From contig OZ244160.1 of assembly GCA_965216325.1 (NCBI GenBank), forward strand, positions 2,816,001 to 2,880,000: a DNA stretch of 64,000 nt, in the 5' to 3' direction. The DNA is from Coraliomargarita sp. Lineage in GTDB: Bacteria > Verrucomicrobiota > Verrucomicrobiia > Opitutales > Coraliomargaritaceae. The notes under the pieces were generated by a model, which saw nothing but the letters and a program-made list of their open reading frames with translations, was not told where the DNA came from and ran no database searches. Of this stretch, positions 26,030 to 39,016 are shown in pieces (the stretch's first letter is position 1; each line of letters starts with the position of its first letter). Made by a program: the position numbers and the translations under genes.

Positions 26030-26996
26030 ATGAAAAAAAAATACCAAATCATCAAAGACTCAGTGTTCGCAAACGTATCAACAGTTCTATGCGCATGTCC
26101 ATAGCAAAGCTCACTCGCCTCGTAGTCGTAAGGCTTATCTGGATTGGGTCAATCGCTTGGGCGAGCACTACCAACCGAAGGGCCCGGGGTTGCGCCGTCT
26201 ATCGGAACGTCAGGTGTTGGACTATCTGATCTACCTGCGCGACGACCAAAAGCTGGCCGCGTCAACGGTGAATCAGGCGCTGGTGCCGATTCGGACGCTT
26301 TACCGTGATGTGCTGGCCCGGGAGTGGAAGCTGTGGTCGGAGTTCACGCTGCAGCGGCGCGAGCCTTTGCCGAGCGTGCTCACGCGCGACGAGGTGCGGC
26401 GTGTGCTGGCCTGTGTGCATGAGGGTCGCTTTCGGGCGGTGCTCTCGCTGATCTATCACTGTGGTTTGCGTTTACAGGAGGCCTTGCAGCTCAAGCCGAC
26501 GGATATCGACTCTGGACGCGGCGTCGTTCGCGTGCGCCATGGCAAGGGCAACAAGGCGCGTGAGGTGCCGATTTGCCCGGCAATGGTCAAGCGGTTGCGG
26601 GCATTTTATAAGTGCCACCGCAATCCGGACTGGCTGTTCCCTGGCGTGGGGCGCGGCTGGAAGCAGTCAGGCATCTCTCAGGCGCAGGCGATGCACCGCA
26701 GCGCCAAGCCGATGAGCAGCTCGGCGCTGGAGATGGCGATGCGGATCATCCGCGCCAATAGTGGCATCAACAAGCACTTCACGGTGCATACCTTGCGGCA
26801 TAGTTTTGCCACACATTTGCTGGAGGACGGGGTGTCGATTCGTCAGGTCAGTCGCTATCTCGGCCACTCGGAACTGAAGAGCACGCTGGTGTATCTGCAT
26901 GTAACCGAGCTAAGTGAAGAAGGTGGCCGCCAGAGCCAGAGCGCACTGTTTGACAGTGTGATCGCTCCGGCCTTGTCGAAGCGCAGCAAGCGTTGA
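26030..26996 (+). CDS. Tyrosine recombinase (phage-integrase family). The ATG at 26030 is out of frame by one A in an A9 tract; the ORF track starts at TTG 26157
   Basis: [43 protein letters not shown]. The frame upstream of 26157 encodes SPRSRKAYLDWVNRL, resembling an N-terminal SAM-like domain. Confidence 0.88.
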
Positions 26997-28096
26997 GGCT
27001 GGCCGATCTACTGCGGCGGCATTGGCCGGAGTATGTCAGCGCGCGCGGCGGGGCACACAAGATCCCTGCCGCACACTGGCGAGCAGTCGAAGCCGTCTTG
27101 AGTTGTCGCACGTCTAGATTGGGCGGGCATGTGCACCTGTGTGCCAGTTGCGAGCGTGAGCACTATGTGTATCACAGCTGCAACCATCGAGCCTGTCCGA
27201 GTTGTGGAGGGCGCACGCAGCAGCTGTGGTCAGCACGCCAACAGGCTCGCCGCTTACCGGTGCCATACTTCATGCTGACCTTCACGGTGCCCGAGCAACT
27301 GCGCGGGTTCTTCCTGCGCTACGACCGGGTCGCCTATCAGTTGTTGTTCGCGGCCAGCTCTGGAGCGATCAAAGAACTGTTTGCCAATCCGAAGCACTTT
27401 GGTGGCGAGCCGGGCTTTGTGGCGGTGCTGCATACGTGGACACGGCAAGTGCAGTATCACCCGCATGTGCACGTGCTCGTGCCTGCCGCTGCACTCAGCC
27501 AGAGCGGATGCGAAGTAATCCGCGCCAAGCACGAGAACTACCTGTTGCCGTATGCCGCGCTGGCGCGCAGCTATCGCGACCAGTTCCTGCGTGCGTTGCG
27601 CGAGAAACATCCGGGCCGGTCTGCTGAACTGGATCCACAACTCGCGCGTATGGATTGGAACGTGAACGTTCAACCGGTTGGTCGTGGCAAACGTGCACTA
27701 CGCTACCTCGCGGCGTATGTGGGCAAGAGCGCCTTCAGTGAAGAACGTCTGGCTGGTTACGATGCGCAAGGGCGTGTGCGGCTATGGTGGACCGATTCGG
27801 CTACGGGCCAGCGCAGGCTGATGGCTCTTGAGCCCGCCGAGCTGATACGCCGCTGGCTGCTGCATGTTCTGCCCAAGGGGCTGACACGCGTGCGGCACTA
27901 TGGCACCCTCTCAGCTGCCGCGCGGGATAAATACCGCAGGCTGCGCTTCCTGCTCGGCGGCCGTGCACCTGCGATCCAACTACCTGAAGAACAGCCTCTG
28001 CGTTGTCCTTGTTGCGAGGGGCAGCTGCACCGCGTCGGCAAGCTCCGTCCAGTCCGTGGCCCACCGCTGAGCACCGCCTTACTTTACCGCAAATGA
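26993..28096 (+). CDS. IS91-family (HUH, Y2) rolling-circle transposase
   Basis: Zn-binding CRT...CASC...SCNHRACPSC, LHTW...HPHVH HUH motif, YLAAY Y2 motif, HVLPKG..RVRHYG. Confidence 0.93.
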   Translation: MRLADLLRRHWPEYVSARGGAHKIPAAHWRAVEAVLSCRTSRLGGHVHLCASCEREHYVYHSCNHRACPSCGGRTQQLWSARQQARRLPVPYFMLTFTVPEQLRGFFLRYDRVAYQLLFAASSGAIKELFANPKHFGGEPGFVAVLHTWTRQVQYHPHVHVLVPAAALSQSGCEVIRAKHENYLLPYAALARSYRDQFLRALREKHPGRSAELDPQLARMDWNVNVQPVGRGKRALRYLAAYVGKSAFSEERLAGYDAQGRVRLWWTDSATGQRRLMALEPAELIRRWLLHVLPKGLTRVRHYGTLSAAARDKYRRLRFLLGGRAPAIQLPEEQPLRCPCCEGQLHRVGKLRPVRGPPLSTALLYRK

Positions 28097-28395: not shown

Positions 28396-28451
28396 GTTCA
28401 ACAATCAGTTATCAACGCGGCTGCGCGCGATTGATAACTTCAGGGTTAGGC
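28396..28451 (-). other. attC site of cassette 6 (atypical body)
   Basis: GTTCAAC-AATC-AGTTATCAA CGCG...CGCG CGA TTGATAACT-TCAGG-GTTAGGC. The toxin stop codon lies in the R'' box; GTTAGGC is complementary to GCCTAAC at 28992. Confidence 0.8.
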
Positions 28452-28733
28452 CTTTTTGTAATTCTTTAAGTCTCTATAGAAGTTTTCATGGCTCCCATAC
28501 GTAAGTAGACTTATTTCACTTTCATCGAAGCTATAGGAAAGTAGTGTCAGCTGTTTATTGATTTTAAACTTATGGACGAATATTCCTGCAAGATCGCCAG
28601 CTTTTTCCTGACCAATGCTAGGATTTGAGAGGATGTCTAAAACTGCATCGTCTAATTCTTTCTTTTCCTGCTTTTTGAGCTTCTTCATTTTCCTGCTGAA
28701 CGCAGGGGATACGTAGACCTTCTGTTTAGCCAA
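28446..28733 (-). CDS. Cassette 6: RelE/ParE-family toxin
   Basis: 95 aa; NPSIGQEKAGDLAGIFVHKF, GSHENFYRDLK; overlaps the antitoxin stop. Confidence 0.88.
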   Translation of the reverse strand: MAKQKVYVSPAFSRKMKKLKKQEKKELDDAVLDILSNPSIGQEKAGDLAGIFVHKFKINKQLTLLSYSFDESEISLLTYGSHENFYRDLKNYKKA

Positions 28734-28944
28734 AAGTATATTCCTCCTTCTCAGCTTCTTTCATTTCCTCCATTGCTAATAGTGTTTCTTTAATGAAGCT
28801 GAAGGGTAGGTCTGGATTCTCTTCGGCAGCCTTTCCGATCGTTGCCCAATATTCCAACTGTGAAGTCATTGATCGATGCTCCACTTTGGATCTGGTTTTG
28901 GCTTCTTTTGCGAGATGGTCGGATATGCGAATAACAGTGCTCAT
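28726..28944 (-). CDS. Cassette 6: ParD-like antitoxin
   Basis: 72 aa; RSMTSQLEYWATIGKAAEENPDLP; upstream of the toxin, with a TTGACA hexamer in the cassette leader. Confidence 0.85.
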   Translation of the reverse strand: MSTVIRISDHLAKEAKTRSKVEHRSMTSQLEYWATIGKAAEENPDLPFSFIKETLLAMEEMKEAEKEEYTFG

Positions 28945-28991
28945 GAATGACGCCTTGTAGTAAAATGTAGCACATTGTCAACTTTTTGTGT

Positions 28992-29059
28992 GCCTAACGT
29001 AGAGATGTCTCGATTCAGTGAAGCGCGGAGCGCGTAACTGAATTGAGACTATCGACTGG
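28992..29059 (-). other. attC site of cassette 5, split by intron 1 (remaining TTCTAC at 29712-29717)
   Basis: GCCTAAC-GTAGA-GAT GTCTC GATTCAGT...ACTGAATT GAGAC t ATC-GACTG-G|TTCTAC; the rebuilt GTTCTAC is complementary to GTAGAAC at 30279. Confidence 0.9.
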
Positions 29060-29711
29060 GTATGCCCGGCATGTTGATAAACTAATATGGTTAAAGTCCA
29101 TTGTGAGAGCCCTGAATAACAACTCAATCACTAGAGAAGCACAAGTGCGGAATCGTGAGGTTTCGTGCGGAAGCAGTGTGGATCAAACCGACGAGCCGAT
29201 GTATAAGAACGTCATAGGAGGCACAGAGGACGGGCGAGCGGGCCCGGGATCGCGAAGCCCATCAGGTCAGATCCGATGTGTAAATGGCGCGGTTGTGTCG
29301 GGGCAGTGTATCAACTTATCCGGGGAGGCCTCGGAGGTTCGCGTTGTGGCTTCAATGTGCCAATCAAGCATCGCAGTTGAAGCAGGGATGCTTCGATGAT
29401 GAACTTCCGAGGAGTCAGCAAAGGGCATAGTAGCCGCGGAGACGAGCTTGCCAGAGGCAGGACGGACTCACGAAGCGGTGAAGGCCTGAAGTCGATCATC
29501 ATCGGGACTCATTCAGTAGACACGTCCATAAACGCCGACCGTAGCGCGAGGACCTCTGATCTCTGTCTGATACAGCTCGAAGATACGTCTACTTTTGTAG
29601 GCGCGACAACCGCCTTAAAACAGACTGCGTAGCACTGCGATCAGTCTGGCTGCGGACCCGCATGGCAGGTGGTGTGGGAGCGGGGGGAGTTAATGCCCCT
29701 CGCTACCCGAT
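29060..29711 (+). mobile_element. Intron 1: ORF-less group IIC-type intron (652 nt) inserted in attC
   Basis: Starts GTATGCCCGGCATG; first 273 nt nearly identical to intron 2; D5/D6-like end ...CGCTACCCGAT; no RT ORF; removal restores the attC core. Confidence 0.9.
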
Positions 29712-29720
29712 TTCTACCAT

Positions 29721-29978
29721 TCAGTTGTAGTGGAAACGCATCTGGACGAAAGTGATTCCGTGATCGAATTGCTTGTACACAAGGCGATGCTCTTCAGTGA
29801 TTCTTCGGGACCAGTATCCACTTAAATTATGTTTGAGAGCTTCAGGCTTTCCAATGCCTTCATATGGAGAACGCGTGATGTCCTGAATCAGTAAGTGGAT
29901 TCTCTTTAGAGTCCTTTTATCTGTTTTCTGCCAGTACTGATAATCTTCCCATGCTTGTGGAGTGAAACTGATATTCAT
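29721..29978 (-). CDS. yoeB: Cassette 5: Txe/YoeB-family toxin
   Basis: AWEDYQYWQKTD, GIGKPEALKHNLSGYWSRRITEEHRLVY, RFHY. Confidence 0.95.
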   Translation of the reverse strand: MNISFTPQAWEDYQYWQKTDKRTLKRIHLLIQDITRSPYEGIGKPEALKHNLSGYWSRRITEEHRLVYKQFDHGITFVQMRFHYN

Positions 29979-30232
29979 TCTGAGAGATCAATTTCTTTTA
30001 CGGTAATATTCCCTGTTTCAGCCGCTTCGATGGATGCGATCAGTCTCTTCGCATTTGCAGGACTTCTTAGGAGGTGTGCAGTCTCTTCGAGGGCTTCATA
30101 GTCTTCCAAAGAGAGCATTACGACAGCCTGCTCCCTTTTTCTTGTTATGATTATTGGGTCTCGATCTAAGCAGACCTGATCCATTGTGGATGCTAGATTC
30201 TCTCTTGCGGCGGTGTAAGTAATAGCGTTCAT
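29975..30232 (-). CDS. yefM: Cassette 5: Phd/YefM-family antitoxin
   Basis: MNAITYTAARENLASTMDQV...VVMLSLEDYEALEETAHLLRSPANAKRL. The start must lie inside the cassette, below 30284. Confidence 0.93.
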   Translation of the reverse strand: MNAITYTAARENLASTMDQVCLDRDPIIITRKREQAVVMLSLEDYEALEETAHLLRSPANAKRLIASIEAAETGNITVKEIDLSE

Positions 30233-30234
30233 TG

Positions 30235-30270
30235 TGGACATCATACTGTCCATGTTCGCGCGGGGGTCAA
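30235..30270 (-). promoter_or_regulatory. yefM-yoeB promoter/operator
   Basis: TGGACA-N6-TGTCCA inverted repeat (two TGTACA-like cores, 12 bp centre to centre) overlapping TATGAT, with TTGACC upstream. Confidence 0.6.
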
Positions 30271-30278
30271 TTTTTTTC

Positions 30279-30338
30279 GTAGAACGTGGAGATGTGGCGA
30301 CGGCTGAGCGCAGCTCAGTCGTTGCCACTATCGACTGG
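30279..30338 (-). other. attC site of cassette 4, split by intron 2 (remaining TTCGAC at 32231-32236)
   Basis: GTAGAAC-GTGGA-GAT GTGGCGACGGCTGAG cgcag CTCAGTCGTTGCCAC t ATC-GACTG-G|TTCGAC; the rebuilt GTTCGAC is complementary to GTCGAAC at 32921. Confidence 0.92.
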
Positions 30339-32230
30339 GTATGCCCGGCATGTTGATAAACTAATATGGTTAAAGTCCATTGTGAGAGCCCTGAATAACA
30401 ACTCAATCACTAGAGAAGCACAAGTGCGGAATCGTGAGGTTTCGTGCGGAAGCAGTGTGGATCAAACCGACGAGCCGATGTATAAGAACGTCATAGGAGG
30501 CACAGAGGACGGGCGAGCGGGCCCAGGATCGCGAAGCCCATCAGGTCAGATCCGATGTGTAAATGGCGCGGTTGTGTCGGGGCAGTGTATCAACTTATCC
30601 GGGGAGGCCTCTATCTGTGGCGAGCGTGAGCTTCAATGTGCTCACTCAAGCGCTTGCAGCGGTGACAGCAATGCCGTCGCTGTCACGGATGGAGGAGTCA
30701 GCAAAGGGCATAGTAGCCGCGGCGACGAGCCTGCCAGTGGCAGGATGGACTCACGAAGCGGTGAAGGCCCGCACTACGCATGGCAACCGGACTTGCCTCT
30801 GGAGCCCACCCATAAACGCCGGATGGCGCGCGGGCACGGGAATCCGGAGCAATACAGCCAGTTGCAAGCCGAGCTATTGGAGGCGATCTTCAGTAGCACC
30901 AACCTCGAAGCGGCCTATGGTCGTGTCAAAGCCAATGGCGGAGCCGCTGGTGTAGACGGCATTAGCTGGGCCGAGTTTACGGAATGGTTCATCCCGCGCC
31001 GTGAAGGTCTGCTGCGCCGCTTGCATCTGGGTAACTACCGCCCGAGTGCGGTGCGTCGTTGCTACATCCCAAAATCGAACGGCAAGAAACGCCCTTTGGG
31101 CGTGCCGAACCTGTTCGATCGGATCGTGCAACAAGCGATCCACCAAGTGCTCAGCCCGATGCTGGAGCCTTCGTTCAGCGAGCATAGTTTCGGGTTCCGC
31201 CCCAAGCGCGGCGGCCAACAGGCCGTCCGCGCCCTGCACGGGCACATCCGCAGCGGCTATCGCTGGGCAATCGACATCGACCTGAAGTCGTTCTTCGACA
31301 CAGTCCCGCACGCGCGTGCGTTGGAAGCACTACGCAATCGCCTCGGTGGGGATGGCCCCGTCGTGCGGTTGATTAAGCGCTACTTGGAAGCGGGCTATGT
31401 CGAACTGGACCAGTTCCACGAAACGGTCGAAGGTATGCCACAGGGCGGGCCCTTGAGTCCCTTGCTGTCGAATCTGGTGCTGGATGCACTGGATAAGGAA
31501 CTGGAGGCTCGGGGGCACCACTTCGTGCGCTACGCCGACGACTTTGTCGTGGTCGTTCAAAGCGAACGCGCTGCCAAGCGCGTCTTCTCCAGCATCTGCG
31601 ACTTCGTCGAGGGCGAGCTGGGGCTGACGGTCAACCGTGAGAAAAGCGCGGTGCGCCCGGTGCGTGAACTGAGCTACTTAGGCTTCAGTTTCCGTCAGGC
31701 CAAGATCGTGGTCAGTGCGCAGGCACTGGCCGAGTTCAAGTATCGTCTCAAGTGTTTCAGCTGTCGAAGCTGGAGCGTGTCGATGGACTACCGCCTGTAT
31801 CAGCTTCGTCAATACGCTCGAGGTTGGATGGGCTATTACGGCCTGTCCGAAGTTTACAGCGTGTGGCTGTCGATAGACAAGTGGCTTCGCAGGCGAGTTC
31901 GCATGTGCTACTGGCGCATGTGGAAACGCCCGCGACGTCGCTATCTCAATCTGGTGAAAATTGGCTCCAATAGTAAGTTTGCTGGTGGCTTTGCTAAAAG
32001 CTCAAAGGGCTACTGGCGTCTGGCTCAAGCGCTGGGCACACAAACGGCAATGAGCAATCAATGGCTAGAGGAACAAGGCCTGATCAACATCAGGCAACAA
32101 TGGTGGAGTTTAAAGCTCCTGCGTATAACCGCCTTAAAACAGACTGCGTAACACTGTGATCAGTCTGGCTGCGGACCCGCACGGCAGGTGGTGTGAGAGC
32201 CGGGGGACTTAGGGCCCTCGGCTACTCGAT
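30339..32230 (+). mobile_element. Intron 2: full-length group IIC-type intron (1892 nt) inserted in attC
   Basis: GTATG 5' end, RT/maturase ORF, modified D5, and D6 ending GGCTACTCGAT. Confidence 0.93.
30823..32151 (+). CDS. ltrA: Group II intron reverse transcriptase/maturase; no endonuclease domain seen; start uncertain
   Basis: NGGAAGVDG, RPLGVPNLFDRIVQQA, SFGFRP, DLKSFFD, PQGGPLSPLLSN, RYADDF, GWMGYY. Confidence 0.93.
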   Translation: MARGHGNPEQYSQLQAELLEAIFSSTNLEAAYGRVKANGGAAGVDGISWAEFTEWFIPRREGLLRRLHLGNYRPSAVRRCYIPKSNGKKRPLGVPNLFDRIVQQAIHQVLSPMLEPSFSEHSFGFRPKRGGQQAVRALHGHIRSGYRWAIDIDLKSFFDTVPHARALEALRNRLGGDGPVVRLIKRYLEAGYVELDQFHETVEGMPQGGPLSPLLSNLVLDALDKELEARGHHFVRYADDFVVVVQSERAAKRVFSSICDFVEGELGLTVNREKSAVRPVRELSYLGFSFRQAKIVVSAQALAEFKYRLKCFSCRSWSVSMDYRLYQLRQYARGWMGYYGLSEVYSVWLSIDKWLRRRVRMCYWRMWKRPRRRYLNLVKIGSNSKFAGGFAKSSKGYWRLAQALGTQTAMSNQWLEEQGLINIRQQWWSLKLLRITALKQTA

Positions 32231-32236
32231 TTCGAC

Positions 32237-32914
32237 CTATTTTAGTTTTATCGTCGGGGTGCCCTCTAGGTCGAAAATGACTAGATAAATTTCTTTTCGA
32301 TGGTCTCCTTCTACTATCTCAAGCTTTTCAAGTAGAGCTTCATCGGAAAATGTTAATCTGAAAGCGTGGCTGCTTGGCATTGTGACTATGACAACATTCT
32401 CATTTTCATTTTCTATGTCTCCGCCTAAGGAGGTAAGTTTCTCAGTGAGGTATTCTCTTTTTCTTCCCAACTGAATGTAGTCATTGCCGATGGGTGACCT
32501 ATTCGCTTGGACTGCTAGTTTAAAGCCATCCTGCTTCATCAGAAGAAGTTCAGCCCCACTTCTTCTACCGTTTTCTTTTATTACATAGTATCGAACGTAG
32601 TAGACATCTTTGTGAGCAAGAGATTTTTCAGATGGCAGTATGTGAATCTCTGACAGATCAGATGCTTTCAAAACGGTTCTCCACGCTGACTCAGGTTTCT
32701 TATTCGATGGCCATTCAATCCAAGTTCTACTGAAGTATGGTTCTAGCTTTTCATACTCTTTATTGTAAGCGGCAGTCAGAATTTTTATCGCGACATGATC
32801 GGGTGATCCTGGCTCAACATCATATTCTGTAATGCTCACTGGTGTCGGGCGAGCGGATACGCTGTTTATGCATGCTAAGAGAATGCTGAATGATACAATG
32901 ATTTTCTTTTTCAT
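32237..32914 (-). CDS. Cassette 4: secreted hypothetical protein
   Basis: MKKKIIVSFSILLACINSVSA signal peptide; ATG 7 nt from the core site; AT-rich. Confidence 0.8.
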   Translation of the reverse strand: MKKKIIVSFSILLACINSVSARPTPVSITEYDVEPGSPDHVAIKILTAAYNKEYEKLEPYFSRTWIEWPSNKKPESAWRTVLKASDLSEIHILPSEKSLAHKDVYYVRYYVIKENGRRSGAELLLMKQDGFKLAVQANRSPIGNDYIQLGRKREYLTEKLTSLGGDIENENENVVIVTMPSSHAFRLTFSDEALLEKLEIVEGDHRKEIYLVIFDLEGTPTIKLK

Positions 32915-32920
32915 TTTTTC

Positions 32921-32977
32921 GTCGAACGTGGAGGACGGGCGCGGCTTCAGCCGTTGTCCCGCTCCGACTTGATCTGC
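32921..32977 (-). other. attC site of cassette 3, with a non-canonical GAT R'' box
   Basis: GTCGAAC-GTGGA-GGA CGGGC GCGGC ttca GCCGT TGT CCCG c TCC-GACTT-GATCTGC; GATCTGC is complementary to GCAGATC at 33557. Confidence 0.85.
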
Positions 32978-33549
32978 TTTGTTTTTTCTATGGATTCGTG
33001 AATATATGCAGGCGCACTGTCTGGCACATCTGAAGCACGAACAAGACGATACCGAATCCAATTTGAACTCTCTGCTTCTCGTTGGGCCTCCTCGTCCACA
33101 AAGGACTGAAAATGAATTCCGGAAGCAGTTAATCCGATAGTGGTTTCGGCGAAACGTAGGATGTAATCTTTAGGGCTAACCTTCCCTGTCGGCCAACCAC
33201 TGCTTTTACTATATAGTTCACTTTGAAGTGGTATTGTTATCGTCGATTTATGGTCTACATCATCAACGAGAATCTTTATTTCATTTGCATCACTGTTTGC
33301 TAAAAATTTGACGCTGCCGCTAGGGGCGGGTGCTTGGAAAGCACTGAACCAATCGCTTCGCCCATCGGACTTCTCTTTCACGAAAAAGTAAAGCTCTTGG
33401 GTCTGGTATGATTCAATCGGCAAATCCATCTCGGCGGGAACGAAGTGAAGTGCACGTGCAAGATCAGATGCCGAAACGATTTCTTTTTCTTTGTTACAGC
33501 CGATTGATAGCAAAACGGCCAAGCCTAATATCACGTTGGTTACTTTCAT
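32947..33549 (-). CDS. Cassette 3: hypothetical lipoprotein
   Basis: MKVTNVILGLAVLLSIGC lipobox; the ORF reads into its attC and stops in the hairpin loop. Confidence 0.8.
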   Translation of the reverse strand: MKVTNVILGLAVLLSIGCNKEKEIVSASDLARALHFVPAEMDLPIESYQTQELYFFVKEKSDGRSDWFSAFQAPAPSGSVKFLANSDANEIKILVDDVDHKSTITIPLQSELYSKSSGWPTGKVSPKDYILRFAETTIGLTASGIHFQSFVDEEAQREAESSNWIRYRLVRASDVPDSAPAYIHESIEKTKQIKSERDNG

Positions 33550-33556
33550 TTTATTC

Positions 33557-33616
33557 GCAGATCGTAAAGAGGGGTAACTAGTGGGCGCAGCACACTAGTT
33601 GACCCTCTCGCCTGGT
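33557..33616 (-). other. attC site of cassette 2, split by intron 3 (remaining TCGCA at 35523-35527)
   Basis: GCAGATC-GTAAA-GAG GGGT AACTAGTG...CACTAGTT G ACCC t CTC-GCCTG-GT|TCGCA. Confidence 0.88.
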
Positions 33617-35522
33617 GTGTGCCGAGCATGCGCTCGATGTAAAAGTGGTTAAAGTCCGCTATAGTAAGAACCTAATCATAAAATGAAAGAACTATTACCA
33701 GATGCCAAGGGCGTTGTCGTGAGGCAGGGTCTGAAGGAAGGCTATGGGAAAGCTGCGAGCTGATGAACAAAAACTGCATAGAAGGCCGACGTGGTCTGGT
33801 GAGCTGGCACCACACAGCGAAACCGCTAGGTTCAGCCACGCAGGTAAATGCAGCAGTTGTGCAGCGGAGCATCGAGTGCTTACCTCGGGAGGCCTCAGCG
33901 AGTGGCATGGGTTGGCTTAAAGGTGTCAATCAAGCCCATGCACCTGAGTCAGTAATGACACAGGCGGCACTGGTTGAGGATTCAGCAGCGAGCATAGTAG
34001 TCATGGAACCGCGAGCCATGAGTAGGTCGATAGGCCGAAGAGCATGGAGGTCTCGAACGTGATGAAGGCTCAAACCGTATATGGGCAGTCCGACCCGCAG
34101 GCAGGTTCACCTCTCACTGGCACAGACCCGTGTCGAGAGCTGGGCGATGTTTGTGCAGGGAAGCATGGGGCTGCCGAGCAAGAACTACTGGAGTTGATGC
34201 TGGACCGCGCTAATCTGAACGCAGCTTGGCGGCGTGTGCGCAGCAACGGTGGAGCTTCTGGCATCGACGGTATGTCGATCGAGGACTTTCTGCCGTTTGC
34301 GCGCGAGCACTGGTCACGGATCGAGACTCAACTGAAAGAGGGAACCTACCAGCCAGCCGCGGTGCGCCGCGTCTGGATACCGAAGGACAATGGGGAGAAG
34401 CGCCCACTGGGCATCCCCACGGTGTTGGATCGTGTGATCCAGCAAGCCATCGCTCAGGTAATTGCGCCGATCTTTGAGGCACAGTTCAGTGAGCACAGCT
34501 TCGGCTTTCGTCCAGAACGCCGAGCCCATGACGCAGTCAAGTCGATCCAAAGCGCAGCCACTGAAGGTCACGTGTACGCGGTCGATTGTGACCTGAAGTC
34601 ATTCTTCGACACGGTCGATCATCGTGAATTGATGCAGCGTCTAGCGCGCCGGATCAAAGACGGGCGCGTGCTGCGCCTGATCTACCGCTACCTGAAAGCA
34701 GGCATCCGCTTGCCCGATGGCAACACCGAGGCAACCGCCGAGGGGGTGCCACAGGGGGGACCGCTCAGTCCGCTACTGGCCAATATCATGCTCGATGACC
34801 TCGACCATGAACTCGAACAACGCGGGCACCGTTTCGCACGCTACGCCGACGATTTTGTTATCGTCGTCCAAAGCAAGCGAGCGGCTGAGCGCGTGATGCA
34901 CAGCATCAGTGGCTTCATCGAAGCGAAGCTCAAACTGATCGTGAATCGCGAGAAAACGAAGGCGGGTCGGCTGACACAGTGCAGCTTCCTCGGATTCGTG
35001 ATCTCGCCCAAGCGTATCCGCTGCTTGGATACCAAACTGCACACGTTCAAGAAGACCATCCGTCAAATCACCTGTCGCAGTTGGGGCATCTCCATGGAGG
35101 AACGCCTCGAACGTCTACGACTGTATGTGAATGGCTGGCTGGGTTACTTCGCTATCGGTGTGCCGTTCAAGGATATCCGCAGCATGGATCAATGGCTACG
35201 AAGGCGTGTGCGCTTGTGCTACTGGAAACAGTGGCGTTTACCGCGCACGCGCTACCGCAAGCTACGCGCGCTTGGGATCAACCCGAAGACGATTAAGCAG
35301 GCTAGTCGTTGTCGAAAAGGCTACTGGCGCTGCAGCAAACTGCGAGTGGTCAGTATCGCGATGAACAACCAATGGCTCGCCGAACAAGGCTGCCCCTCAA
35401 TCAAAGAACAGTGGCTCAAACTCTGCTATCCAAACGGATAGCTCTAACGGAACCGCCGTGCTACGGAGCCGTATGGCCGGTGGTGTGGGGGCGGGAGTCA
35501 GTGATGGCTCCCGCTACCCGAT
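33617..35522 (+). mobile_element. Intron 3: full-length group IIC-attC intron (1906 nt) of a second lineage
   Basis: Canonical GTGTG start; short class-C D5 ACCGCCG t GC TACG gagc CGTA tg GC CGGTGGT; ends CGCTACCCGAT; inserted at GT|T. Confidence 0.93.
34044..35441 (+). CDS. ltrA: Group II intron reverse transcriptase/maturase; start uncertain
   Basis: NGGASGIDG, RPLGIPTVLDRVIQQA, DLKSFFD, PQGGPLSPLLAN, RYADDF, GWLGYF. Confidence 0.95.
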   Translation: MEVSNVMKAQTVYGQSDPQAGSPLTGTDPCRELGDVCAGKHGAAEQELLELMLDRANLNAAWRRVRSNGGASGIDGMSIEDFLPFAREHWSRIETQLKEGTYQPAAVRRVWIPKDNGEKRPLGIPTVLDRVIQQAIAQVIAPIFEAQFSEHSFGFRPERRAHDAVKSIQSAATEGHVYAVDCDLKSFFDTVDHRELMQRLARRIKDGRVLRLIYRYLKAGIRLPDGNTEATAEGVPQGGPLSPLLANIMLDDLDHELEQRGHRFARYADDFVIVVQSKRAAERVMHSISGFIEAKLKLIVNREKTKAGRLTQCSFLGFVISPKRIRCLDTKLHTFKKTIRQITCRSWGISMEERLERLRLYVNGWLGYFAIGVPFKDIRSMDQWLRRRVRLCYWKQWRLPRTRYRKLRALGINPKTIKQASRCRKGYWRCSKLRVVSIAMNNQWLAEQGCPSIKEQWLKLCYPNG

Positions 35523-35592
35523 TCGCATTTTGGGCTCCGCCAACAGATCAACTTCAGACTACTACAATTTGATTCAATTTAGCGTGTGAAAA

Positions 35593-36454
35593 TTAGAAGA
35601 AATCATCGACGGCCTGGTCTTCTTTAGCCTCTTCCTGAGCTTTTCTCTGTTCCATTTTATTAATTAAGTCTTCCTCGGCTCCTTTAAAGAGTGGGGTCGA
35701 ATGAGTCAGCAGGTATATTTCCTCGATGTTACGGGAATTCACTTTTTCCCATAGGGCATCGATCATAGCTCGGACTTCGGGCATAGTGTTGTAAGCTGAT
35801 CTGTCTACATTCATATTTCGCATCATCTTATCTTTGGTGAGGCCCTCTTTTGCACTCTCTGATAAATTACCGTAAATTTTAGAATAGATAACTCGACCGT
35901 AATTGGTGCTATTCGAATGTGTTACACGAGTTTGAAAACCATCTATTCTTTCCTCCTTGCTCTCATCGAGCTTACCAAACCTCTTGCGAATCGCTGCGTC
36001 CATTTTAGGTTCAAGATCGATATCAACTTTTTTAATTACCCCGAAAAACCGATTATTTATGGATAGAACTGTTGAACCGTCATGTTGGATCGCAGTGATA
36101 TAATTTCTGATCTCACTTAATTGAGGAAATGCTTTCAAGATGTCTGCGTCTAATTTATTGAGTGATACGTTAGGCAACTGATAGGAATCTAGCTGGGTTT
36201 TCTGATATATCTTGAGGAAATCTTCGATCGGAATTCCCCAGGGAATATCTTTATACCCTTTGTAAACGGACGAATCTGCAGTGACATGATTTTTGACTAG
36301 TTCATCAATTGCGGCTTTGGACTTTTGCTCTTGTCGCTCAATCTCAGCCTTACGCTCCTCTTCGGCAATGCGTCGCTCTTCCGCTTTGCGGGCTTCCTCA
36401 GCCTTACGCTCCTCTTCGGCAATGCGTCGCTCTTCCGCTTTGCGGGCTTCCTCA
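35593..36454 (-). pseudogene. Cassette 2: 5'-truncated hypothetical gene fused to the intron 4 fragment
   Basis: AT-rich ORF; sequence beyond 36454 is the antisense of an RT gene; its expected start core site (TGCGAAC on +) is absent. Confidence 0.75.
36343..36454. repeat. 54-bp exact tandem repeat (two copies plus CTCA) encoding EARKAEERRIAEEERKAE
   Basis: CTCAGCCTTACGCTCCTCTTCGGCAATGCGTCGCTCTTCCGCTTTGCGGGCTTC at 36343 and 36397. Confidence 0.92.
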
Positions 36455-36925
36455 CCCGTCGCAACTGGAGTGTGAGTATGGAGTATCGTCTGTATCAGAT
36501 CCGCCAATACGTGCGGGGCTGGATGGGCTACTTCGGACTCAGTGAAAACTCCAGTTTATGGATCTGGATTGACCGCTGGCTTCGCAGGCGAGTTCGCATG
36601 TGCTACTGGCGCATGTGGAAACGCCCGCGACGTCGCTATCTCAATCTGGTGAAAATTGGCTCCAATAGTAAGTTTGCTGGTGGCTTTGCTAAAAGCTCAA
36701 AGGGCTACTGGCGTCTGGCTCAAGCGCTGGGCACACAAACGGCAATGAGCAATCAATGGCTAGAGGAACAAGGCCTGATCAACATCAGGCAACAATGGTG
36801 GAGTTTAAAGCTCCTGCGTATAACCGCCTTAAAACAGACTGCGTAACACTGTGATCAGTCTGGCTGCGGACCCGCACGGCAGGTGGTGTGAGAGCCGGGG
36901 GACTTAGTGCCCTCGGCTACTCGAT
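36451..36925 (+). mobile_element. Intron 4: 5'-deleted group II intron fragment (maturase C-terminus plus D5/D6)
   Basis: LTRRNWSVSMEYRLYQIRQYVRGWMGYF...TALKQTA. 36577-36925 matches 31882-32230 apart from one base I saw in D6. Followed by TTCTGC, the remnant R'' of cassette 1. Confidence 0.9.
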
Positions 36926-37293
36926 TTCTGCCTCCAGGCGGTTAGTGTGTCGATTTGCTCTAACGTGTGTTTGTTGGTATCCCAAACTGGAGTGAAAAGT
37001 GAGATTCTATTTGGAATAAGTGGCACGACATAAATATGGATAGATGAATTCTCATCTTCTTTATATCTAATGTCGATATAGTTGAAAGTCTTTGGCTTCG
37101 CCGTCCTAGGAAAGGTTCCGAGTTCGATAGATTCTATTTTTTCTTTTTCTATCCTAAGGTTTAGCCTTCCTGATGTGCATTCGATCGAATCTGGGTTGAT
37201 TCTGAACTTTCCTTTACTTTCATAAACCCAGAACCATCTGCCAACGAAAGATGCGTTATGTTCAGGTGTGGAGAAGAATGCTTTAAATTCCAT
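36904..37293 (-). CDS. Cassette 1: hypothetical protein; its last residues and stop codon come from the intron antisense strand
   Basis: 129-aa AT-rich ORF; ATG 8 nt from the attI core. Confidence 0.75.
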   Translation of the reverse strand: MEFKAFFSTPEHNASFVGRWFWVYESKGKFRINPDSIECTSGRLNLRIEKEKIESIELGTFPRTAKPKTFNYIDIRYKEDENSSIHIYVVPLIPNRISLFTPVWDTNKHTLEQIDTLTAWRQKSSSRGH

Positions 37294-37690: not shown

Positions 37691-39016
37691 ATGTTGGGGT
37701 GTATGAAAACAGTTCATTTTCCACGTTGGGCGGAGGTCTTGCGCGAATCCTCTTTAGGGGAGGAGTTGCGTTCGAGTTATAAGGTCACGATTCGCTGGTA
37801 TTTGAGTTGGTGTGCCAAGCAGCATATCGGCTGTTCGGTTGAGTCGGCGCGTGCCTTTGTTGATTGGGCAATCAATGAGAAGCAACCTAAAGATTGGGTC
37901 ATTAGCCGTTGGCAGGCTGCGATTCGCTGGTTCTTCGTGACAGCAAAGGAGCAGGCGGCACCAGGGGGCGGAGTGAGTCAGGAGCAGAGTGGGGACGCTC
38001 CTGCGCTAACTGCACTGGAGCGGCGAGATTTGGAGGCGGAAGAGCGGGTTGAGGCGGCGAACGACGATGAAGGGCGGATTTTAGCGGTGATGCGACGACG
38101 CGGGATGGCTCTGCGAACTGAGCGGGCCTATTTGGGGCACTATCGTAGTTTTGTGCGCCAGTCGGGTTTGGTGGATGGCTGTTTGATGTCGGCTTCGATG
38201 GTTAAGCGCTACTTGGATTATTTGGCGATGGAGCGTGCAGTGGCGTCCTCGACGCAGAAGGGGGCGCTCAATGCCTTGGTGTTCATCGCACAGGCTGTTT
38301 TCGGCATTGAACTGGGGGATATTGGTGACTTTGTGCGCGCGAAGAATCGGAGGCGTATTCCGGTGGTGATGACTAAGGAGGAGTTGCGTTTGTTCTTTCA
38401 GCAATTGAGCGGTGAGAAGCTATTGATGGCCCGGGTGCAATATGCGGCCGGCTTGCGTGTCTCCGATCTATGCCGTTTGCGTGTGCAGGATTTGGATCTG
38501 CAGCGTAATCAGTTGGTTGTGCGCTGTGGTAAGGGGCACAAGGATCGAGTGGCACCCTTACCTGAGTTGTTGAAGTCCGAATTGGAGGCGCAGTTGTCTG
38601 TTGTGCGGAGCCTATTCGATGAAGATTTACAGCGTAGTGATCTTGCGGGGGTTTATCTGCCTGAGGCCTTGGCGCGGCGACACAAGAATGCGGGGCGAGA
38701 TTGGCGTTGGCAATGGGTGTGGCCGAGTCGTAAGATCTCCACGGATCCACGCGGTGGGAAACGTCGTCGGCATCACGTGTTGCCGAATACTTATCAGCGC
38801 ATTGTTCAAGATGCAGGAAAGGACGCTGGGCTGACCAAGCGAATTACGAGTCACACCTTACGGCACAGTTTTGCCACGCACTTACTGGAGGATGGCGTGG
38901 ACATCCGGACGGTGCAGGACTTGCTCGGACACAAGCATATCGAGACGACCCAGATTTACCTGCACGTCATGCAGAAGCCGGGGGCGGGGGTGCGCAGCCC
39001 GCTGGAAACGCTTTGA
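37691..39016 (+). CDS. intI: Integron integrase with an N-terminal extension (start 37691 or 37703)
   Basis: [16 protein letters not shown], the IntI-specific insertion [27 protein letters not shown]...[39 protein letters not shown]. Confidence 0.97.

Follow-up and report, generated by a model that had tools for sequence, protein, structure and literature searches.

The window analysed here, a stretch of 64,000 nucleotides (nt) from the genome of Coraliomargarita sp. (Verrucomicrobiota; contig OZ244160.1, positions 2,816,001 to 2,880,000 of the forward strand), carries an integron cassette array, and the recombination site (attC) of its yefM-yoeB toxin-antitoxin cassette holds a 652-nt element on the plus strand, designated S1 (29060..29711). 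S1 is a complete group II intron of the class C type associated with attC sites (IIC-attC) which is free of an open reading frame (ORF), having lost its reverse transcriptase (RT) gene and kept its RNA structure. Its limits were set from the sequence, from matches to the Rfam models RF02001 and RF01998, and from copies found in the genome by blastn; it opens with GTATGCCCGG at 29060 and closes with CTACCCGAT at 29711. When S1 is excised, G29059 is joined to TTCTAC (the 3′ flank, 29712..29717, plus strand; the rest of the R″ box, read from the sequence), giving GTTCTAC, the exact complement of GTAGAAC at 30279-30285 across yefM-yoeB, and the precise ends claimed by an earlier sequence-only reading are thereby confirmed to the base. 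A full-length relative, A1 (30339..32230, plus strand; "intron 2" of the sequence-only reading), forms a direct repeat with S1, with 627 nt between the two. A1 encodes an intact intron-encoded protein (IEP; 30823..32151, plus strand; 358.3 bits with TIGR04416), which contains the Pfam domains RVT_1 and GIIM and no endonuclease domain, and the start of which is 1,112 nt downstream of S1. The parts of S1 are covered without differences by contigs of two public sequencing runs from the organism, and contigs of four runs show no joint skipping S1 and no empty site, a result that, coming from contigs, does not extend to rare forms.

S1 was divided into six domains (D1 to D6), all on the plus strand. 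D1 (29060..29332, positions 1-273 of S1) contains the match to RF02001, the model of the D1 core, at 29149-29314 (100.2 bits, gathering score 32; 101.4 bits for A1). It differs at 61 positions from D1 of a second genomic copy, S2, and at a single position, 187 of S1 (29246 in the window; G versus A), from D1 of A1, as had been noted for the first 273 nt. D2 (29333..29416, 84 nt) has a sequence of its own that was said to form its own stem all the same, and it does so: 41 of 84 positions differ from A1, yet the stem CCTCGGAGGTTC/GAACTTCCGAGG, with one G-U pair, and the three-way fold of the family with its GNRA loop (a GGGA tetraloop) are kept. D2 could be extracted from 13 of 14 elements, all 13 of which formed stable hairpin domains, 88 nt long in 12 and 84 nt in S1. 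RF01998, the D2/D3 model, matched 29374-29486 (48.7 bits, gathering score 35; 41.3 bits for A1), including D3 (29417..29486), which differs at 2 of 70 positions from S2 and at 4 of 70 from A1. Then follow the D4 remnant (29487..29609, 123 nt), from which the ORF part (D4b) is deleted, D5 (29610..29680), and D6 with the 3′ end (29681..29711), whose helix extends from 29676 to 29708 and has a bulged A at position 29705. A minimum free energy fold of the whole of S1 recovered D2, the three-way D5 and D6.

The RNA structure of the D4 remnant appears to have been maintained. The sequence-only reading had described the ORF region as replaced by about 115 nt without RT similarity. The absence of RT coding capacity holds, but the segment is 123 nt long and has not simply been replaced, being colinear with the two ends of the full-length D4. 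Its first ~92 nt follow D4a and the first ~19 codons of the full-length form up to the motif ATACAGC, and its end is the counterpart of the full-length 3′ hairpin and basal stem (GGAAC-GUAAA-GUUCC, then UGCGUAU). D4a is the usual anchor for the intron-encoded protein. The same layout (CTGAAGYC ... CATAAMYGCCGACCG ... GATACAGC, then a terminal hairpin) is common to S1, S2, a copy from another genus (S3) and the metagenomic copies L109 and L119/L121, and the length is 123 nt in S1, S2, L109 and L119 despite ~25% divergence. Compensatory changes were found in three stems: the basal stem (GUCG/CGAC in S1, GCCUC/GAGGU in L109), the long-range D4a stem (AUCAUCGGG/CUCGAAGAU in S1, AAAUCGG/CCGAGAU in L109, GCAACCGG/CCAGUUGC in A1) and the 3′ hairpin (CGUCUAC-UUUU-GUAGGCG in S1, UUCCCGAC/GUCGGGAA in L109, CUCGAUUC/GAAUCGAG in S3). 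The D4 of these elements, here called S-type, is most simply read as having a single origin in one old deletion.

D5 of S1 contains the canonical IIC helices (CCGCCU/AGGUGG, GC/GC and UGCG-GACC-CGCA), with a CGC triad that includes a G-U pair, a UG bulge and a 4-bp upper helix, but their 5′ strand is interrupted by a 33-nt insertion (29616-29648 in S1, 32135-32167 in A1). All introns of the family made up of A1-like (A-type) and S-type introns (the A/S family) carry the insertion, which consists of UAAAA and the hairpin CAGACUG-CGUA-GCAC-UGCG-AU-CAGUCUG (29621-29648), resembling the upper half of D5. Canonical uninterrupted D5 sequences for comparison are those of L124 and of the third intron at the locus, the B intron (33617..35522, plus strand). 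An intron on a Serratia plasmid, located beside blaIMP-4, has an uninterrupted D5 (CCGCCCUG-UGCG-GAGC-CGCA-UG-CAGGGUGG), with the same elements as in the A/S family; the pair flanking the insertion point is U-A in the A/S family, whereas B has G-C and the plasmid intron C-G at this place. In the D5/D6 model, 416 of 416 cells were paired over 13 distinct family sequences, and four D6 pairs had changes in both partners; the D5 helices do not vary and so neither support nor contradict the model, columns 1-22 being fixed by the search pattern. Rfam models gave no match at E <= 1 on D5-D6 of the three introns (S1, A1 and B) in 28900-36999, and D5-D6 of the A/S family was analysed by hand. Relative to A1, S1 differs at 4 of 71 positions in D5 and 8 of 31 in D6, in agreement with the earlier description of these domains as intact with substitutions. 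The split D5 is presumably functional, because the same D5 is found in full-length members whose IEP frames are long and open. No description of an insertion within domain 5 turned up in a search of a library of open-access papers.

The sequence-only reading had called for a BLASTN search for more copies, and searches returned a second copy in another attC as well as diverged copies in another genus and in metagenomes. S2 (G000:C1:2272852-2273510), found by blastn with S1, lies ~572 kb from S1 in the same genome (G000), and the flanking sequences of S2 and S1 are different as far as the borders of the introns. The 5′ flank of S2, an attC belonging to the repeat family that includes the target of the B intron, is located after slyX at the edge of another run of small ORFs on the minus strand. 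Among 41 genomes of relatives, G000 included, any match was found in nine, and none was found in the three genomes of the same genus. A family-wide search with D3-D5 of S1 gave a match in 12 of 101 genomes, of which only G000 (twice) and G015, a genome of another genus, contained the D4 part; one further candidate for an S-type D4, in G091:C128, was rejected as a piece of a full-length intron. The copy in G015, S3 (contig C3; L021 1501-2316), is 816 nt long and ORF-less, with the same D4 layout. A scan of genome contigs (596 Gb) with a 17-mer yielded 76 loci, where ~69 are expected by chance, and only L089 was S-type, with the same match pattern as the G015 copy. The 5′ attC flank of S3 (TCAGTGAAGCGCGGAGCGCGCAACGGAATTGAGACT...) is clearly homologous to that of S1, while the downstream flanks differ; the attC and the intron in it may have been passed on as one, by inheritance or by transfer.

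In metagenomes, the strict S-type pattern gave no match, and a looser 22-base D5 pattern of the family gave 20 loci, which were sorted by blastn into eight full-length A-type introns (L104, L105, L106, L112, L114, L117, L120, L123), five partial 3′ pieces (L107, L111, L115, L116, L122), three 686-nt S-type introns (L109, L119, L121) and four other short forms (L108, L110, L118, L113). L119 and L121 have the same flanks and L109 has different ones. S1, S2, S3, L109 and L119/L121 thus carry the same deletion within five distinct flanks, each beginning precisely at the border of the intron. Between L109 and L119, 28 of 686 positions are different (96% identity), with the changes spread over all domains and no gaps; full-length identity of this kind in different flanks is what would be predicted of an ORF-less element copied as a unit. 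The other short forms are of a different kind. L118 (222-938, minus strand), L108 and L110 have a deletion joining positions 537 and 1751 of A1 and are otherwise like the full-length L112, with D1 99% identical, which points to a recent deletion of an L112-like intron. L113 is a further ORF-less variant with extra insertions in D5 and D6, and in a third genus (G021) an ORF-less element of ~770 nt (L014 1501-2267, minus strand) has a canonical B-like D5 and a remnant ORF of ~48 codons. ORF loss is recurrent in these introns, with L118/L108/L110, L113 and L014 as independent derivatives.

The near-identity of S1 and A1 over the first 273 nt and the preceding 12 nt, at a distance of 627 nt, could suggest that S1 is a one-off recent internal deletion of A1 after local duplication. 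This explanation is hardly credible, and was rejected on the differences per domain, the D4 identity with S2 and the diverged copies. The numbers of differences between S1 and A1 are 1/273 in D1, 41/84 in D2, 4/70 in D3, 69/123 in D4, 4/71 in D5 and 8/31 in D6, the contrast between D1 and D2 being highly significant (Fisher p = 3e-21). The D4 remnant is found also in S2, in G015 and in the metagenome copies, and a true recent deletion, exemplified by L118/L108/L110, looks different. The statement of the sequence-only reading that S1 did not arise from intron 2 by a simple fresh deletion is upheld by the S2 D4 remnant at another attC and by the diverged copies elsewhere. The near-identity over 273 nt is instead taken as the trace of a recent recombination between S1 and A1 and not of descent of S1 from A1.

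Comparison with S2 gave the complementary picture, with 61/273 differences in D1, 41/84 in D2, 2/70 in D3, 1/123 in D4, 0/71 in D5 and 14/31 in D6 (D1-D2 102/357 versus D3-D5 3/264, Fisher p = 7e-24). D6 of S1 is identical to D6 of L109, L119, L118, L106, L112 and L123, and D1 of S2 is closest, at 89-90% identity, to D1 of A2, the second full-length A-type copy in the same genome. In a tree of D1, the ORF-less copies are scattered beside full-length introns: S1 with A1 (91/84), S2 with A2 (100/100) and L118 with L112 (95/90). S1 is thus a mosaic, with the D1 of A1, the D3-D5 of S2, a D2 of its own and a D6 of the type of metagenomic relatives, and domains have been exchanged among co-resident copies, by gene conversion at the DNA level or by template switching of the RT. 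A1 and A2 provide another example: the last ~100 IEP residues are identical (31850-32151 and G000:C1:553790-554100) in introns that are only 80% identical overall, which is likewise read as a conversion tract between intron copies.

Such mosaicism (D1 of S1 resembling A1, D1 of S2 resembling A2, and D3-D5 nearly identical in S1 and S2), the conversion evident between A1 and A2 at the 3′ end of the IEP gene, and the arrangement of S1 and A1 as direct repeats 627 nt apart would all be accommodated if the ORF-less state spread by DNA recombination only, S1 and S2 having arrived as full-length introns that were then gene-converted by an ORF-less donor. This is the main rival reading, and we consider it unlikely. 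L109 and L119, in their different flanks, are 96% identical throughout with no mosaic break; the D4 of 123 nt with three stems kept by compensatory changes points to selection on the RNA, for which conversion of DNA alone creates no need; and D2 and D6 of S1 are unlike those of A1 (41/84 and 8/31), so that S1 is not A1 with a converted block.

The flanks of S1 are those expected of an attC target. The 5′ flank (28992..29059, plus strand) is the bottom-strand stem-loop of the attC of the yefM-yoeB cassette (GCCTAAC ... ACTATCGACTGG). Folded as single-stranded DNA, it forms a stem-loop of -16.4 kcal/mol (z -4.41) that ends 6 nt before the junction, and the 5′ flanks of A1 and S2 also form stem-loops (z -4.98 and -5.47); across S1, A1 and S2 the stem-loops end 4-6 nt before the junction and none of 200 shuffles was as good. 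At A1, the junction reads G|TTCGAC, which is complementary to GTCGAAC at 32921-32927. The borders of S1 and A1 are thus the paired R″/R′ boxes of successive cassettes, and both introns therefore insert at G|TT of R″ on the attC bottom strand. The junction is CTGG/T in S1, A1 and S2, TGGT/T in the B intron, and YTKG/T or /A family-wide; the published IIC-attC target consensus, TTGT/T (PMC7923331), is not matched by S1, A1 and S2. As had been noticed, S1 and A1 are preceded by the same 12 nt, ACTATCGACTGG, and these two sites are its only occurrences in the genome. The last eight bases, TCGACTGG, belong to the attC consensus of the genome and occur 185 times against ~94 expected, some occurrences being empty attC-like sites and others standing before other introns; the flank common to S1 and A1 is therefore mostly attC consensus.

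S1, A1 and B are all encoded on the plus strand and run antisense to the cassettes of the chromosomal integron. Outward promoters located in D1/D2 of IIC-attC introns drive the expression of downstream cassettes (PMC3001079), and S1 separates the R″ box from the remaining attC, so that S1 might be kept for a host or integron function, as an outward promoter for parDE, as a block to read-through, or as a lock on the cassette through the split attC. That S1 owes its presence to any of these is very improbable, since the site homologous to P1out in the S1 complement (TTGTGC-17-TGTTAT) matches only ~7/12 of the consensus and was not called by the promoter scan, and S1 is not conserved at the site in related genomes. 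Toxin-antitoxin cassettes, moreover, usually have their own promoters.

Taken together, these data favour the view that S1 is a member of a persisting lineage of non-autonomous introns that are mobilised in trans by A-type RTs and recombine with them; we assign this reading a probability of roughly 0.67. The proposal of a maintained ribozyme-only element gains support from the copies at other sites and from the compensatory changes in the D4 stems. Mobilisation in trans by a related RT, proposed earlier for the enzyme encoded by A1, is suggested by the distribution of copies, the retention of D4a and the intact A-type IEP nearby; the helper is likely to be the A-type IEP family generally, and not demonstrably the A1 copy. 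In the proposed scheme, an A-type ancestor would have lost the ORF-bearing D4b once, keeping the ribozyme, D4a and the closing stems of D4. Transcription of the plus strand would give an S1 RNA that folds as a ribozyme and is bound by the RT/maturase of a full-length A-type intron in the same cell, A1 and A2 being candidates. The ribonucleoprotein would reverse-splice into the single-stranded attC bottom strand, after the stem-loop, at G|TT of R″, and the RT, having no endonuclease domain, would copy the inserted S1 using a replication primer. S-type copies would also swap whole domains with A-type introns of the same genome, through homologous recombination or through template switching by the RT, which would explain why S1 has the D1 of A1 and the D3-D5 of S2. 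Transcription, splicing, IEP binding and retromobility of S1 would be expected by analogy with group II introns that have been studied. More tentatively, and with less than even odds in our estimate, the S-type introns may be long-lived parasites of A-type introns that track their helper through domain swaps, D1 being acquired locally and the D3-D5 core passing between sites.

Several results weigh against the main reading, that of a trans-mobilised lineage. S-type copies are few (2 of 101 family genomes, with two in G000 and one in G015, and 3 of 20 metagenome loci). S3 looks decayed, with D2 largely missing, several insertions and a C-A mismatch in D5, and the sole match to the A1 IEP in its genome is 41% identical, in a fragmented assembly with ends of A-type introns at contig edges. 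Given the mosaic, an origin of S1 and S2 through transposition of an ORF-less RNA is less well supported, and the D3-D5 block could have been gene-converted into introns that arrived full-length. None of the public sequencing runs that cover the S1 region is listed as RNA, and a scan of 28400-30500 for sigma-70-like promoters on the S1 strand gave four sites against 2.9 expected, none of them inside S1. The fold of the whole S1 RNA, with z = -1.89 over 20 shuffles, is weak evidence when taken alone. A 4-bp pairing of exon-binding site 1 with intron-binding site 1 (EBS1-IBS1; UCAG/CUGG) is possible, and a by-eye comparison of 17 elements showed no covariation that fixes it.

The lack of a promoter-like site inside S1 and of an RNA-labelled run covering the region, the absence from the same-genus genomes (0/3), which indicates that S1 is not conserved by descent, and the decay seen in S3 could also be expected if S1 were an immobile relic of a once-mobile lineage, persisting at a neutral antisense site in the attC of a toxin-antitoxin cassette. 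Such a relic is improbable, given that S1 itself is undecayed: the D5/D6 pairs are intact, D2 and D4 fold like those of the family and the Rfam scores equal those of A1. D1 and D3-D5, furthermore, are within one to three substitutions of other copies, which places the last exchange or copying very recently.

Among known systems, the insertion site, strand and orientation of S1 are the same as those of the group IIC-attC introns of class 1 integrons (S.ma.I2 and the Kl.pn type), which insert into the attC bottom strand at R″, after the stem-loop and opposite to cassette transcription (PMC3001079; PMC7923331). The 5′ end and the D5/D6 core are similar as well, and the IEP of A1, the relative of S1, resembles those of IIC-attC introns in having no endonuclease domain. 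The best plasmid matches of the A1 IEP are 45-46% identical (45.5% for the IEP of the Serratia-plasmid intron), and the one inspected, H14, adjoins a blaIMP-4 cassette; an affinity of A1 to the monophyletic attC clade of class C would be suggested by these best plasmid matches. S1 differs from the known IIC-attC introns in being without any IEP, in its junction (CTGG/T versus the published TTGT/T, PMC7923331) and in its host, which belongs to Verrucomicrobiota and not to Proteobacteria. The 33-nt D5 insertion likewise occurs in the A/S family and in neither the plasmid IIC-attC intron nor the B family. In searches of a library of open-access papers we found no ORF-less IIC-attC intron, earlier mention in two key older papers being possible.

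The closest precedent is the set of TeI3 ORF-less introns of Thermosynechococcus elongatus, where 17 ORF-less introns share one common deletion and were mobilised in assays by "driver" IEPs (Mohr, Ghanem and Lambowitz 2010, PMC2882425). Like the S-type introns, they show one ancestral D4b deletion with common break-points, a retained D4a with remnants of the ORF ends, covariation in what is left of D4, and occupation of several sites in a genome with related IEP-encoding introns (PMC2882425). They differ in that they are not IIC, home by long EBS/IBS pairing, reach 17 copies per genome and have had trans-mobilisation demonstrated by assay (PMC2882425), whereas the S-type introns, known from sequence alone, have two copies in G000, target attC stem-loops and form domain mosaics with their putative helpers. 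In bacteria, an ORF-less intron is almost always accompanied in its genome by related introns that encode an IEP (Zimmerly and Semper 2015, PMC4424553), a general rule with which the dependence of S1 on A-type IEPs would agree; the bacterial and archaeal examples surveyed by Simon et al. in 2008 (cited in PMC4424553) are rare and, like S1, have IEP-bearing relatives that may act in trans. That survey relied on canonical domain-5 motifs (as described in PMC4424553), whereas the A/S family has a split D5. Only as an analogy, the S-type introns may be compared with pairs of miniature inverted-repeat transposable elements (MITEs) and transposons, or of short and long interspersed elements (SINEs and LINEs), in which a short non-coding derivative retains what the machinery recognises and multiplies at the expense of its autonomous relative; unlike these, the S-type introns would move by ribozyme reverse splicing and target-primed reverse transcription, and their copy number is very low.

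The only well-studied proliferation of ORF-less introns is that of one cyanobacterium, and the S-type lineage would extend the phenomenon to class C introns of integron attC sites. Intron insertion splits these recombination sites and has a proposed role in cassette formation. S1 offers a compact natural ribozyme of 652 nt with a candidate helper enzyme adjoining it, which makes a test of trans-mobilisation straightforward. Domain shuffling and the interrupted D5 are relevant to the degeneration of group II introns towards a shared splicing machinery, and the latter also to the number of ORF-less introns that motif-based surveys may have overlooked; the split D5 is of the kind such surveys would have missed. 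Helper tracking, if true, would amount to modular recombination by a non-autonomous ribozyme, in a family that tolerates a nested D5-like hairpin.

The integron integrase gene intI (37691..39016, plus strand; 356.5 bits with TIGR02249, cut-off 265) is divergent from the cassette array, which runs leftward from it to ~28446 with small genes on the minus strand. The yefM-yoeB cassette (29721..30238, minus strand; Pfam YoeB_toxin 3.2e-38, PhdYeFM_antitox 1e-22), whose attC holds S1, and a parD-parE cassette (28446..28944, minus strand) were identified, the latter being the last of the array. Beyond parDE, the region 26157-28096 contains an IS91-type Y2 transposase and a tyrosine recombinase of 279 amino acids, whose partial match to the integron-integrase model scores 177.6 bits and so falls below the cut-off.

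As for the full-length introns, A2 directly follows the 3′ end of a B intron (G000:C1:552216-552290, L004/L008; ...CTACCCGA|TTATGCCCGG), forming two tandem introns in one attC. One base is missing at the joint, and A2 begins with TTATG and not GTATG. A further A-type intron, A3 (36452-36925 in the window), is truncated at the 5′ end and matches positions 1419-1892 of A1 with 91.6% identity; its 3′ end is intact, before TTCTGCC, a pattern as left by incomplete reverse transcription. At the expected IEP start (RRMARG), ATG is present only in A1 (30340-32151), and the other full-length copies (L105, L106, L112, L114, L123) have P, T or L at this position. In six of nine full-length copies, no stop codon interrupts the IEP frame upstream through D1-D3, as far back as intron position 35 or earlier, and the true start of the IEP may be an in-frame TTG that is conserved in D4a (DLPLE).

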